From: a virus
DNA length: 9,584 bases
Virus genome (UHGV): UHGV-0197445
Strand: one strand, 5' to 3'
A program made the translations under genes and the position numbers. This document shows positions 3,160 to 9,413 of the stretch, one piece after another. The notes under the pieces are model-generated. The model made no database searches. It had not been told where the DNA came from and was given only the letters and a program-made list of their open reading frames with translations. Position 1 is the stretch's first letter, and every line of letters starts with the position of its first letter.

Positions 3160-4404
3160 TCAGTTCAGGTTGTCCCGGAACAGTTCACCGCTCCTCGCGG
3201 CGCTGCGGGGCGTCGCCCTGCTCCGGTCAACCTTTCTGACCTGAAGCATCACCATAATATCAGTCTTGTTGCTTTCACTGGTACGGGAACCGAAGAAGCT
3301 CCAGCCGGAACTGGCCTTACTGTCTTTCTGTTCAGCAAGGCCACCAAGTAAAATAATATCACCATCTGCAAGGCTGACTTCGGTTGTTACATCACGCTTG
3401 ATAAGGGTTGGCGAGTTATTGACGCCGGTTTCAGTGGTCACAAAGTTGGAAAGCTGCTGCTGAATCTTGAGATCCATTGTCCGACTTTTGATTGATGGCG
3501 TTACGTTAAACAAAACACCGCTGGAACGATATTCAACGGATTGCGTGGTCGTATTGTTATTCACCGTAACACTGCCCAGTACTGGCACATCAGAGCCGAC
3601 TGAAAAAGACGCTGAGGCATTATTTTTTACCCGCAGTCGTGGCGCACTGACAACAGTAAAACGACTGTCGGTTTTAAGCAGATTGAAAATGGCATCAATG
3701 GAGCCGGTTCGAATATTGATAAAATTATCCAGTCCGGCAGCACCAACTGAAATATTGAATTTATCAGACAGAATTTTAGCCGCTAAAAGAATGCCGGAGC
3801 CGTCAGACTGCGAGGTCTGAACCTCAAAAACATAACCAGAAACAACCACTTCATCACTCATCGTATCCAGCGAAGTGACCAGTGTTTTCAGGATGGCGAT
3901 ATCCTCTTTCGTACCATAATAAACCAGAATATCACCGGTTCGATTGATGTAGTTGCTTGCCCCTGATGAACCTTTTAGCGAATCGTCAGAAATCACGGCT
4001 CCACTGTTATTGAAGGAGCCTGAAACGTAGCCGCCAAGAATATCAGACAGGTAGGCAACAGAACGGTACTGAGGCGTATAAGTCCATGTATAACGTGGCT
4101 TAACCGGCTCTTTCGGCGTATAGGGCGCGATAAAATCAACACCCTTTTTCGTCCATATTCGAATGTTCATATTGCGAAGATAACGGGTTACAAATTCCCG
4201 TTCATCAATATCAGGTGTTAACCTGAATGTAATCATTCGTTCATCATTAACAAGCTGTGGATCTAGCATATACGGGACTTTAAGCACCTCACTATAAATA
4301 AGAGAAATAGCCTCCGGTAGCTTGACTTTATTTAATTCAAGCTCTGACCCTGCGAAAGCACATGAAGAAAATAGTAGCGTTAATGCGAGTAAAATCTTTT
4401 TCAT
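3160..4404 (-). CDS. Filamentous-phage secretin (pIV-like outer-membrane export channel)
   Basis: 414-aa ORF with an N-terminal signal peptide (MKKILLALTLLFSSCAFA). The C-terminal region has secretin-like motifs (VPVLGSV..., GGLAEQ...). Its ATG overlaps the stop of the upstream Zot-like gene (TAATG), and it is the last gene of the morphogenesis operon as in Ff phages. Confidence 0.85.
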   Translation of the reverse strand: MKKILLALTLLFSSCAFAGSELELNKVKLPEAISLIYSEVLKVPYMLDPQLVNDERMITFRLTPDIDEREFVTRYLRNMNIRIWTKKGVDFIAPYTPKEPVKPRYTWTYTPQYRSVAYLSDILGGYVSGSFNNSGAVISDDSLKGSSGASNYINRTGDILVYYGTKEDIAILKTLVTSLDTMSDEVVVSGYVFEVQTSQSDGSGILLAAKILSDKFNISVGAAGLDNFINIRTGSIDAIFNLLKTDSRFTVVSAPRLRVKNNASASFSVGSDVPVLGSVTVNNNTTTQSVEYRSSGVLFNVTPSIKSRTMDLKIQQQLSNFVTTETGVNNSPTLIKRDVTTEVSLADGDIILLGGLAEQKDSKASSGWSFFGSRTSESNKTDIMVMLQVRKVDRSRATPRSAARSGELFRDNLN

Positions 4405-5429
4405 TATTTTTTCCCCGTATAAAGCGTCACACGCTCACCATCAATAATTCCGCTCATCAACATCCCTTTGTAATTAAAACTGGATGCAGGAACGGCACGC
4501 AAAACACCGGCACCGTTAACAAGAATCACAAACGCCCTGCCTTCACTGGTCATTCTCCCTGATATACGCCACTCGGTTGAAAGTGGCGGTTCAGCTGGTT
4601 CTGAGGGAGTATCTGGTGCTGGAGTAGCAGCGGAAGAACGAAACATGGCCGCATCACGTACATCTGTTGTAGCCAAATCTGGCGAGGGATCGCTTCGGCC
4701 AAACGTGCTGAAAAATGAGTAAATCAGCCAGCCTGACCCGATAAACATCAATGGAAAAAGCACAAGAAAGAACCTGACTTTGCCAGAATTCCAGATGCTC
4801 TGGCGTTTATCTGTCTGCTTTTCATTACCGTTATTTCCTTCATAGCTTTTATAAAGTTCAAAAATATCAGGGTTATATTTATTGCGATAACTGGTGACGA
4901 GGTTGCTTTTATAGATTTTGTGGCCTGAATATACGTCAATGCAGTAATGATTATTCAGGCCCAACGCTTTCAGCTTGCGCATCCGGTAAGTTGTTTCTAT
5001 TTTGTCTTTCAGAAAGCGAGCAATATTAGAAAGTGACTGATTTACAATAACCAAATCACAGCTAATACCCGTTTCAGGGTGCGTAAAATGACGATGTTCA
5101 GCAATAAATGATTTCTTCTCAGCCGTCATATCCTTATCGCTACCGAAGATTCGCCATGCTTCATCAATAACAATTAAATCACCAAACTGGCAAAAGCTCC
5201 CTTCCCCACCTTTAAAAGGAAAGAAATCTGCTTTAAGCACATCATCATTATCCACAACAATAATTTCTCCCGTTGCATCAGGATAACGTTCGGTGATTTT
5301 ATCTTTTTGTAAACCATAAATGTTCGTCACAACTCTCCGGCCGCTGGTAAATGCAGGAATAATGACATTGCAAACGGCTTCATAACTTTTTCCTGAGCCG
5401 GGTATGCCAATATATGCAGAAATAGCCAT
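4404..5429 (-). CDS. Zot/pI-family phage assembly ATPase
   Basis: 341-aa ORF with N-terminal Walker A GIPGSGKS and Walker B LIVIDEAW. A single TM segment follows (about aa 220-242, FFLVLFPLMFIGSGWLIYSFF), then a Pro/Ser/Thr-rich periplasmic tail. This architecture is typical of gene I / Zot proteins. Confidence 0.9.
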   Translation of the reverse strand: MAISAYIGIPGSGKSYEAVCNVIIPAFTSGRRVVTNIYGLQKDKITERYPDATGEIIVVDNDDVLKADFFPFKGGEGSFCQFGDLIVIDEAWRIFGSDKDMTAEKKSFIAEHRHFTHPETGISCDLVIVNQSLSNIARFLKDKIETTYRMRKLKALGLNNHYCIDVYSGHKIYKSNLVTSYRNKYNPDIFELYKSYEGNNGNEKQTDKRQSIWNSGKVRFFLVLFPLMFIGSGWLIYSFFSTFGRSDPSPDLATTDVRDAAMFRSSAATPAPDTPSEPAEPPLSTEWRISGRMTSEGRAFVILVNGAGVLRAVPASSFNYKGMLMSGIIDGERVTLYTGKK

Positions 5430-5432
5430 AAC

Positions 5433-5720
5433 TCACCCTATAACAGGAATACGTCGAATAATAAAACGAGTAGCCATTGCGGAGATAATCATACTAATCC
5501 CCTGTGGTAATTTACTCAGGTTAATGAAGTACCAGAATCCGTCTGATAAATTGGCAAACAGCGATGAGAGATTGCTTGAATCTGGCAGTAACTCAACAAG
5601 GATTTCAACGAAGCCCTGGACTACAAAATACAGCGCAAAGAATACGACGAATTTAATAATCAATGACCGGAATACAAAACCTAACAAAGTATTTAATGCA
5701 CTAATCAGAATCCCAAACAT
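5433..5720 (-). CDS. pVI-like minor coat / virion-cap membrane protein
   Basis: 95-aa very hydrophobic ORF located between the pIII-like and pI-like genes (the conserved gVI position; Ace position in CTX). Strong SD: AGGAG then a 7-nt spacer before the ATG. It ends 3 nt before the Zot-like start. Confidence 0.55.
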   Translation of the reverse strand: MFGILISALNTLLGFVFRSLIIKFVVFFALYFVVQGFVEILVELLPDSSNLSSLFANLSDGFWYFINLSKLPQGISMIISAMATRFIIRRIPVIG

Positions 5721-5732
5721 AGTTGCACTCCT

Positions 5733-8029: not shown

Positions 8030-8031
8030 AA

Positions 8032-8349
8032 TCAGCCTTTTATTTCAGTAATGCCGCCATCTGATGAAATGTTATAAGTTACTCCTTCCCTCCCCTCCAT
8101 TGACCAGACGCGAACATATACAGGTATCTGGACTAACTTACCGATAAAATTATTTGCCTGATTCATTACACCGGCATTAACAAGAGCCTGAGATACACGA
8201 ATAATAATCTGGTCTTGCTTAGTGCCACCAAAACCATCAGGAATCTCTAAGCCAACACCAATTTCATTATAGTATCCCTGACCATTGACCTTATTACGCT
8301 GGCGAGCACCAAGCATTTTACCTTTTACAAAAAGACCATAATTAGACAT
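8032..8349 (-). CDS. Putative ssDNA-binding protein (pV/RstB-like), assigned mainly by position
   Basis: 105-aa soluble Gly- and aromatic-containing ORF immediately downstream of Rep. Very strong SD: AGGAGAG then a 7-nt spacer. Only the rep stop codon and this SD separate the two genes. Assignment rests on synteny and size, not on a recognised motif. Confidence 0.5.
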   Translation of the reverse strand: MSNYGLFVKGKMLGARQRNKVNGQGYYNEIGVGLEIPDGFGGTKQDQIIIRVSQALVNAGVMNQANNFIGKLVQIPVYVRVWSMEGREGVTYNISSDGGITEIKG

Positions 8350-8360
8350 ATCACTCTCCT

Positions 8361-9413
8361 TTAATGCCAGTTACTGGCATGTGAAATACGGTTATAATCG
8401 AAAATTAAACCTTTCTCATAAACCCATGATGGAATTTTGGCTGGTTTGGCTTCAAGAGTACGAACCAACGGAACAACGTTATTAGAATCCGGTGACTCAC
8501 AATAAAAGTTAATATCTATTCCGAAAGAAAGTAATTCTTTACGGTGTCGGTAGAATGTAGGTTTCGGTAACATCTCTTTCATGTTCGCGCCCTGCTTCCA
8601 CAATAAATATGTAGACTGTATTTTTCTTGGGAGATTAATTATTTTTTCATCAGTTAATATGGTATTTTGATTCATTTCTATTCTCCCTACATAGTCAGAG
8701 AATAATTTATTGGGCGTCTCAATATTCCAGCTATTACCAAGCGTAAGATTCAAATCAATTAATTCAGTTGTTCTTAATGTTAATTCAATGCGTAATTTAT
8801 CTTTTGACCAGTCCAGTAAACCAGCTTTAACGAATTCGTCTGCCATCTGGTGCCCTTTTTTGCCAGATGTATGCTCATCATATTTTGAATAAAATTTCAG
8901 GCTCCAACGACGGGAGTTTTTCCCTAAGTAAACAGTGCCACCTTTACCACAGGCGCGACCGTGGCGAGTTTTAGCTTTAAATTCTGCGGCATATAACCAT
9001 GCGCGGACATTTTCTAATGTTGACAATGAATACATGTAATTGATATCGATGCGCGAGATCTTAAATTGCCCTTCCATGACCTGCCGATAGGATGGTAGAT
9101 CATGAGGAATATGCAGTAATGCCAATATTCTGGCGTAAGCTGTTAACACCAACCCTTGCAAATCGTCGGAACCGATAACAGAGTGACCTTGCAAAAACTT
9201 TGATGGATTACCGTCAATGTAGAGATGTGTTGCCCGACCTTCACCATCAGATCCAACAGACCTTACTTTCATTGTGGACTCATGCGAACCGCGAACTGTC
9301 AACCGTTTTACTGTTTCCCACTCCACTGCACCGTCAGCATCGACGCTGACGACACTACCAGCCGGTAACGGTCGGTGTGTGCAAGGCAGGATTCCGGTAA
9401 ACCAGTCGATCAT
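8361..9413 (-). CDS. Rolling-circle replication initiation protein (pII/RstA-like)
   Basis: 350-aa ORF, first gene of the phage operon, about RstA size. It contains Tyr-rich segments (KFYSKYDE; GTVYLGKNSRRWSLKFY) compatible with a rolling-circle nicking-joining active site. Followed by ssb, coat, pIII, pVI, pI and pIV in canonical order. Confidence 0.7.
   Translation of the reverse strand: MIDWFTGILPCTHRPLPAGSVVSVDADGAVEWETVKRLTVRGSHESTMKVRSVGSDGEGRATHLYIDGNPSKFLQGHSVIGSDDLQGLVLTAYARILALLHIPHDLPSYRQVMEGQFKISRIDINYMYSLSTLENVRAWLYAAEFKAKTRHGRACGKGGTVYLGKNSRRWSLKFYSKYDEHTSGKKGHQMADEFVKAGLLDWSKDKLRIELTLRTTELIDLNLTLGNSWNIETPNKLFSDYVGRIEMNQNTILTDEKIINLPRKIQSTYLLWKQGANMKEMLPKPTFYRHRKELLSFGIDINFYCESPDSNNVVPLVRTLEAKPAKIPSWVYEKGLIFDYNRISHASNWH

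Follow-up and report, generated by a model that had tools for sequence, protein, structure and literature searches.

Replication, structural and export genes of a CUS-1/YpfΦ-type inovirus in a 9,584-nucleotide viral genome, and the shared cargo cassette that lies beside them

What kind of phage is carried by the viral genome UHGV-0197445, and is this phage still whole? The window analysed here is the entire stretch of 9,584 nucleotides (nt), and the question is raised by positions 3160-9413, where a six-frame list of open reading frames (ORFs) gives eight co-linear ORFs on the minus strand. An earlier account, called the sequence-only reading below, had taken them for the complete replication and morphogenesis module of an inovirus with a secretin of its own. 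It is very likely that these genes serve an inovirus of the CUS-1/YpfΦ type, found in Enterobacteriaceae, for replication, virion structure, and assembly and export, and that the window holds the complete genome of this phage once, in circularly permuted form. The module has been published before, as CUS-1/YpfΦ, a phage that the sequence-only reading did not name, and there is little new in the finding itself. In the order in which they are read, the features of the module are the following.

8361..9413, minus strand: Rep, a pII-like rolling-circle initiator of 350 amino acids (aa); Pfam Phage_CRI 1.2e-73 and G2P_X_C 3.6e-34, PHROG 702 1.4e-119
8361..8675, minus strand: candidate pX-like in-frame product of 104 aa, from Met247 of Rep; GGGAG before the ATG at 8675
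8032..8349, minus strand: pV-like single-stranded DNA (ssDNA)-binding protein, 105 aa; Pfam Putative_G5P 1.2e-52
7778..8029, minus strand: 83-aa protein with a C-terminal transmembrane (TM) segment, in the gene VII/IX position; PHROG 3679 (unknown function) 1.1e-32
7510..7743, minus strand: major coat precursor, 77 aa; PHROG 2186 'virion structural protein' 4e-29
7476..7498, minus strand: intrinsic-terminator-like hairpin and T-run after the coat gene; 10 pairs, 5 of them G-C, a loop of 3, then TTTTACTT
5733..7445, minus strand: pIII-like minor coat/adsorption protein, 570 aa, homologue of puvA of CUS-1; PHROG 3942 (unknown function) 3.7e-252
5433..5720, minus strand: pVI-like minor coat protein, 95 aa; Pfam DUF2523 1e-20, PHROG 974 6.6e-30, Ace-like PHROG 306 3.8e-07
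4404..5429, minus strand: pI/Zot assembly ATPase, 341 aa; Pfam Zot 2.2e-26, PHROG 197 7.6e-94
3160..4404, minus strand: pIV-type secretin, 414 aa, with a signal peptide; Pfam Secretin 1.3e-24, PHROG 1012 'assembly (protein IV of M13)' 5e-138

The identity of the phage is seen most directly in a megablast of the window against 5,426 complete Escherichia coli genomes, 82 of which carry at least 80% of it. Positions 2274-9584 correspond to positions 6001-13311 of the locus L001 at 99.96% identity, and window positions 1-1022 run on directly from L001 13312. Since the two parts are contiguous in this order, the window is exactly one permuted unit, opened at the ATG of the helix-turn-helix (HTH) gene. 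Over these 7,311 nt the DNA identity is 99.96% to the avian pathogenic E. coli (APEC) strain O2:K1:H4 E19019 and 99.8% to UTI89, and in both strains the prophage lies between a gene for an SDR oxidoreductase and hipA. All eight core proteins are full-length in the two strains, with lengths equal to those in the window and 99.1-100% identity, Rep being 99.7-100% identical to the copies there. In Yersinia pestis NCTC5923, which carries YpfΦ, positions 2193-9584 (7.4 kb) are found at 99.4% and positions 1-527 at 99.2%, in tandem copies. The claim that the phage is intact is thus borne out. YpfΦ is 8.7 kb long, with a 7.1-kb core that is 99% identical to CUS-1, and its virions, 1,200 x 8 nm in size, contain circular plus-strand ssDNA; knock-outs of YPO2274, YPO2277 and YPO2279, which belong to the replication, morphogenesis and secretion modules, abolish the particles (PMC4266046). 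It is near certain that the module in the window is intact and that it belongs to a lineage known to make virions.

The order and the lengths of the eight genes were as the sequence-only reading had given them (350, 105, 83, 77, 570, 95, 341 and 414 aa, from Rep to the secretin), and so were the junctions. Read directly on the minus strand, the rep/ssb junction is TAA-AGGAGAGTGAT-ATG, where the 11 nt that part the rep stop codon from the ATG contain AGGAG, the Shine-Dalgarno sequence of the ssb-like gene, and the junction to the gene of the 83-aa protein is TGATTATG. From the coordinates, Zot and the secretin overlap in TAATG, sharing one base. The ssDNA-binding gene stands directly downstream of Rep, as the inovirus core module requires. 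Domain searches matched, far beyond what chance would give, profiles for Rep, the G5P-like protein, the pVI-like protein, Zot, the secretin and the coat protein, and profile support covers all assignments except those of the pIII-like protein, which is assigned by position, C-terminal anchor and literature, and of the 83-aa protein. Together, the gene content and these matches bear out the inovirus reading.

Rep seems to contain a second start. Residues 247-346 of Rep are covered by the profile of PHROG 17464, a 'replication protein' of 100 aa (6e-51), and because this alignment begins exactly at Met247 and the Shine-Dalgarno sequence GGGAG precedes it, the internal start is likely the equivalent of gene X; it carries no RefSeq annotation. 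The coat precursor reads MFKKIVSFLAVPALMAVSGATFA followed by AEGAASSG..., the signal peptide ending in ...ATFA, so that the signal peptide and the AEG mature N-terminus are both where they had been placed; an acidic N-terminus, a hydrophobic core and a basic C-terminus can also be read from it. The terminator described after the coat gene is there as well, as a hairpin and T-run 12 nt past the coat stop codon. In the whole window, 9 terminator-like sites were found as compared to 8.5 expected, and neither promoter-like nor terminator-like sites are commoner than in shuffled sequence. With the totals at chance level, only the position of the hairpin behind the coat gene is meaningful.

In the 83-aa protein the TM-like segment spans residues 55-81, and its sole profile match is PHROG 3679. 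The pIII-like protein has a TM anchor at its C-terminus (residues 549-570), a GGAG Shine-Dalgarno sequence upstream of the ATG at 7445 and 99% identity to its counterpart in Y. pestis, and its C-terminal ~100 aa are conserved and match four other PHROGs. Its role is that taken for puvA of CUS-1, the pIII-like gene (PMC4266046). RefSeq has a 520-aa version of this gene, and the 570-aa frame includes a signal-like hydrophobic stretch; the PHROG 3942 profile alignment begins at residue 28. The Walker A and B motifs noted in Zot are present as GIPGSGKS and LIVIDEAW, and the protein has a single TM segment at residues 218-241. The secretin aligns to the f1 pIV structure 7OFH in the PDB (9.6e-11) and to the GspD secretins of type II secretion systems (T2SS; 1e-16). 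With these matches and those to Pfam Secretin and PHROG 1012, the claim that this phage, unlike CTX phage, encodes its own secretin is upheld.

There are also points that weigh against this identification. Neither a plus-strand origin nor a packaging signal was located in the window. On the coat protein, Pfam Phage_Coat_B reaches 18.9 bits (E 0.0016), which is below the cut-off of 23.5 bits. No annotated family contains the pIII-like protein or the 83-aa protein, and their roles are taken from position, topology and literature; no credible second small ORF was found beside the 83-aa gene to give a VII/IX pair, and no pXI-like internal start is supported in Zot. Lastly, a circular permutation of exactly one unit could come from a tandem array that had been collapsed by the assembler.

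If the phage is of the CUS-1/YpfΦ type, how is it kept in its host? The features that bear on this lie outside the module.

1..447, plus strand: divergent HTH regulator, 148 aa, in the RstR position; Pfam HTH_3 1.6e-09, PHROG 3557 4.1e-74
9414..9584, no strand: control region of 171 nt between Rep and the HTH gene, contiguous with position 1 in prophages
2196..2288, minus strand: attP, with inverted dif-like XerCD sites at 2196-2222 and 2255-2288 around a G+C hairpin at 2224-2254; from reading of the sequence

A regulatory role for the HTH gene has been proposed in YpfΦ, where the regulator has the RstR position and unrelated ORFs of unknown function lie at the variable end (PMC4266046). The NCBIfam model phage_RstR reaches 8e-4 on the protein, below its cut-off. 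For the intergenic region between Rep and the HTH gene we infer an operator or promoter role, and an imperfect palindrome of 27 nt found there, at 9483-9539, is a candidate operator for the regulator. Just past the HTH gene there is a hairpin at 476-504, near position 527 where the identity to YpfΦ ends.

The first of the dif-like sites in attP reads GATGCGCACAA-TGACG-TTATGCTAAAG, and the second, on the other strand, GGTGCGCATAA-TGTACGACACG-TTATGTTGAAAT. Folded as viral strand, attP gives -33.8 kcal/mol (z -8.5), with the arms paired and 6 nt of the central region bulging out. The attP(+) of CTXφ has been described as built in this way, and the same has been proposed for YpfΦ, which integrates at dif, has inverted XerC/D sites and forms tandem repeats; by analogy, a single strand exchange by XerC on ssDNA, resolved by replication, has been proposed for it (PMC4266046). 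Window positions 2274-2290 are found at both ends of the prophages. Of the two junctions of the integrated copies, one is a dif without mismatch over 28 bp (L001, adjacent to hipA) and the other keeps the whole double site, and tandem copies occur at L009 and L017. No E. coli dif was found in the window at up to 3 mismatches; the sites in attP have diverged further than that and came to light when the junctions were read. Two tandem phage copies were also observed on the Klebsiella pneumoniae plasmid NZ_CP132684.1 (248 kb, IncFIB/IncHI1B; L046 11965-31001), inserted at a dif-like plasmid site, ATTTAACATAA-CGTACA-TTATGCGCACC, which implies that the phage also targets plasmid Xer sites and that it occurs in Klebsiella.

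Judging from the sequence, the copy in the window is probably active. The genes are all intact, attP is reconstituted and not split, and a near relative has been deposited as a free circle, none of which proves that this very copy is active. The circle, NZ_CP128883.1 (L045, 1-9565), is a separate E. coli replicon of 9,565 bp with a core 99.5% identical to that of the window, the same join of attP to the left end, an intact attP and another cargo allele; it was deposited as 'untypable plasmid' and is probably a replicative form.

The explanation that competes best is that the window is one unit of a tandem prophage array on a chromosome or plasmid, or that it arose when an assembler collapsed such an array, and that the prophage is silent. 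We regard this as a real possibility, though not the probable one. A metagenome scaffold (L009/L010) holds the exact mosaic as a two-copy tandem beside hipA with a period of exactly 9,584 bp, and the window aligns collinearly over the junction of the two copies with 3 mismatches. Tandem arrays are the rule for the CUS-1/YpfΦ family, and in Yersinia YpfΦ gives low virion titres and is repressed by RovA (PMC4266046). Against silence speak the circular replicon with its reconstituted attP, the reports that YpfΦ exists extrachromosomally and forms infectious virions (PMC4266046), and the lack of any disrupted gene; a silent array would in any case concern the source and the activity of the copy, not the identity of the module.

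It is far less probable that the window represents a decaying, domesticated remnant which the host keeps for the cargo gene alone. Such phage-less remnant cassettes beside dif do exist (L012 11171-13885), and a related lineage has copies disrupted by insertion sequences (IS; L013). However, the eight core ORFs, the regulator and attP all have their full length in the window and hardly vary between E. coli, Klebsiella and Yersinia, which is the pattern expected of a functional phage that has spread recently. That a host T2SS secretin and a plasmid Rep are neighbours by chance is hardly credible and is refuted by the gene content: RefSeq does name the two proteins 'GspD' and 'phage/plasmid replication protein', but the NCBIfam GspD equivalog model gives the secretin only 103.9 bits, far under its cut-off of 351 bits, the window has no other T2SS genes, the secretin matches protein IV of M13 and overlaps Zot by one base, and genes for the coat, G5P-like and pVI-like proteins lie between it and Rep.

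The label 'GspD' is therefore misleading for this phage secretin, and here the identification has some value for annotation, as the names given to the remaining phage genes of the prophage are mostly hypothetical or generic ones. CUS-1/YpfΦ is a modest fitness and virulence factor of extraintestinal pathogenic E. coli (ExPEC) and of third-pandemic Y. pestis, and the present copy looks fully functional.

The sequences show directly which genes are there and that they are whole, the identity to known phages, the build of attP and the junctions at which copies are integrated. We infer the life cycle of this CUS-1/YpfΦ-type phage, in all its biochemical steps, from homology to Ff and CTXφ and from the published work on YpfΦ. 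The pII-like Rep would nick the replicative form and drive rolling-circle synthesis of the viral strand, probably together with the pX-like internal product, and the G5P-like protein would then coat the strand. At the inner membrane the pI/Zot ATPase would exchange the G5P-like protein for the 54-residue mature coat protein, and caps would be added, the pIII-like protein PuvA and the pVI-like protein at one end and probably the 83-aa protein at the other. The filament would be exported by way of the pIV secretin that the phage itself encodes, and the cell would not lyse. The hairpin behind the coat gene may set a high ratio of coat protein to pIII, as in Ff. Lysogeny would be of the CTXφ kind, with a divergent HTH regulator and an attP that forms a forked hairpin in the viral ssDNA, which the XerCD recombinases of the host may recombine with dif, or with a dif-like site on a plasmid, to give tandem arrays.

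The surroundings of the module are more useful than the module itself. One and the same cargo cassette is found in three inovirus backbones, and a conserved structured element lies at its edge. Its features, and that of the gene next to it, are as follows.

547..969, plus strand: 140-aa polytopic membrane protein, accessory; PHROG 4174 2.4e-84, TM-like segments
974..1028, minus strand: conserved three-hairpin non-coding element of 55 nt, the left edge of the cargo cassette; 98% to the If1 major intergenic region
1121..2197, plus strand: variable cargo gene, 358 aa, two TM helices, G+C 31-35%; PHROG 17621 7.4e-49

The gene of the 140-aa membrane protein is not in YpfΦ, whose identity stops at 527. 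Positions 1023-2192 were unmatched among the 24 best-matching genomes listed, in which coverage is at most 88%. The 358-aa cargo protein has no match to a Pfam, NCBIfam or PADLOC family and its homologues are all hypothetical; its AlphaFold2 model (pLDDT 77) matches only generic beta-sandwich folds. Positions 974-2309, which comprise the element, the cargo gene and attP, are 99.3-100% identical in three dif-inovirus backbones: the CUS-1 type, a lineage with a 371-aa Rep and a 403-aa secretin (L003, L004), and a UPΦ/IKe-like phage (L016). In the second lineage, where the cassette identity is 99.3%, the secretin, Zot, pVI and coat proteins are only 42-53% identical to those of the window, the C-terminus of pIII is 32% identical, and no tblastn match was found between its Rep and ssb and those of the window. 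The sharing of the cassette across such backbones implies that the window is recombinant.

Other alleles at the cargo slot encode quite different proteins.

L012 12461-13813: SIR2 protein; PADLOC PDC-S25 2e-82
L004 3384-4196: DUF2971 protein; PDC-S31 3.9e-48
L006 4112-5053: AbiJ-N-terminal (AbiJ_NTD4)/DUF7014 protein; PDC-S32 2.7e-09
L046 20322-21116: DpnII/MboI-type nuclease-domain protein; Aga_Helical-REase 1.3e-34

By these matches the four alleles are candidate anti-phage defence genes. The allele in the window and its homologue in UTI89 gave no match to a defence family. Hypervariable inovirus regions have been described in Vibrio as hotspots for anti-phage genes (PMC12715192), and UPΦ, CUSφ and YpfΦ are known to have variable accessory regions, with hybrids forming in tandem arrays (PMC7307601), so the mosaic of cargo genes extends known findings and is not new. 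A remnant of such a cassette was observed between the prophage and hipA at L012 11171-13885 (also L008), consisting of a decayed IS transposase, the hairpin element, the SIR2 gene and an attP-like site, with no phage genes, and the same remnant frame with another cargo gene is found on an IncF plasmid (L006 2723-5179). A satellite phage was considered for the 1.2 kb that separate the SIR2 gene of L012 from the prophage and are found also on the IncF plasmid, and was rejected because this DNA is the decayed IS transposase.

The three-hairpin element at the left edge of the cassette is not confined to these phages. It is common to If1, CUS-1, two other E. coli dif-phage lineages, Alteromonas phage phiAFP1 and 25 inovirus contigs of IMG/VR; the identity is 98% to the 'major intergenic region' of If1 and 96% to phiAFP1, and the contigs (4.7-14.6 kb) were found by an exact search for the central hairpin. 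The long ORFs are on the strand opposite the element in 25 of the 25 contigs, which means that its orientation to the viral strand is fixed. Helix 1, with a GAAA loop on the plus strand of the window, changes on both sides in 5 of its 7 pairs, and 93.5% of the cells in its alignment are paired, a share that falls to 20-42% if the partners are shifted against each other. No variation is seen in helices 2 and 3, for helix 2 in part because it served as the search seed. Folded alone as ssDNA over 54 bp, the element has an unremarkable energy (z -1.1), and its structure is therefore supported by the covariation only. The counts of G.T and A.C wobbles in helix 1, which could tell the folding strand, are balanced.

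Seen in viral orientation, the element is situated in the longest non-coding stretch, and an ORF the size of Rep usually follows 330-770 nt downstream. This corresponds to the place of the packaging signal and the minus-strand origin in Ff. The viral-strand sequence of helix 3 is CC-GCGAAGC-GG, which is reminiscent of the stable d(GCGAAGC) mini-hairpin, and the CTG in the loop of helix 2 is reminiscent of the start triplet of DnaG. It is conceivable that the element is an undescribed cis-acting signal of many otherwise unrelated inoviruses, likeliest a minus-strand priming origin or a signal of the packaging type, and that together with attP it forms the flanks that let defence cassettes hop between backbones and plasmids; we put this forward tentatively, as a proposal that is rather unlikely to hold in full. 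The element may then mark the start of complementary-strand synthesis, or of packaging, in these phages.

Other explanations of the element were considered. A leader of the cargo mRNA is argued against by 3 contigs that have no ORF downstream on the same strand. Homology to an origin of the G4 type was rejected, as a sensitive blastn against 50,697 phage records gave only inoviruses and unclassified records of 7-9 kb, and no G4. A match in a CTXφ record falls in uncharacterised DNA that flanks the CTX core, and is uninformative. The element is found on 435 plasmids, and these copies look like one captured cassette with an IS remnant, the element, an Abi-like gene and a site like attP. No Rfam family covers the element, its sequence was not found printed in the literature searched, and a literature search for the If1 minus-strand origin gave nothing relevant. 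In the If1 record, two unannotated antisense ORFs of 62 and 53 aa were observed downstream of the element, at 4994-5358 on the complementary strand (L005 798-1162); the first has a plausible AAGGA Shine-Dalgarno sequence, and both may be chance.

Two small ORFs remain between attP and the secretin gene.

2823..3071, minus strand: 82-aa ORF downstream of the secretin, WP_001399975.1, conserved in all CUS-1/YpfΦ copies
2429..2677, minus strand: 82-aa ORF, of which the RefSeq version has 65 aa, WP_001298440.1; PHROG 6642 1.1e-53

A transfer RNA scan of the window found none, and Rfam at E<=1 gave no match anywhere in it. Rearranged partial phage copies with 95-98% identity were observed in Klebsiella spallanzanii SB6411 (L018), in which the match to the pIII-like gene ends at residue 391 and most of the secretin and Zot genes is missing; this looks like a decayed relative.

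The sequence-only reading had compared the module to the canonical organisation of Ff, and this holds in part. With M13, f1 and fd the phage shares the order II(X)-V-small-VIII-III-VI-I-IV, translational coupling at the junctions, a terminator behind the coat gene, a phage-borne pIV gene right after gene I and a mature coat protein that begins with AEG. Unlike them it has one 83-aa gene in place of VII and IX, and no sequence similarity can be detected between its pIII and that of Ff. It is also temperate and has, as in CTXφ, a divergent HTH regulator, a Xer-dependent attP of the dif type, antisense accessory genes and cargo genes; its intergenic region is split and carries the cargo.

With CTXφ the phage shares the divergent regulator in the RstR position, the inverted dif-like attP that folds as a forked hairpin, the integration at dif by XerCD, the tandem arrays and the variable cargo slot beside attP. 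CTXφ has no secretin gene and exits through EpsD of the host, and the replication proteins of the present phage (Phage_CRI/G5P) are of another type than those of CTXφ. The UPΦ901-type phages, which are IKe-like and integrate at dif, are related to the present phage in replication: the DNA identity is 80% over 8025-9412 (L016), the dif site is the same, and the same cargo cassette is found in L016. For UPΦ, an amino-acid identity above 85% has been given for genes II and V (PMC7307601). Their morphogenesis genes are unrelated and of IKe type (G3P_pilus-bind, Phage_coatGP8, DUF5455).

The closest relatives are YpfΦ and CUS-1. YpfΦ lacks window positions 528-2192, that is, the 140-aa membrane protein, the three-hairpin element as it is placed here and the cargo gene, and has YPO2271/2272 instead. 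CUS-1 (CUSφ), which is known from E. coli O18:K1:H7 and other ExPEC such as UTI89, is identical to the window in gene set, gene order, dif/hipA site and attP, and the UTI89 copy has the near-identity in DNA and proteins given above. It differs at the cargo slot, where UTI89 carries a 369-aa ORF that is 30% identical to the 358-aa ORF of the window.

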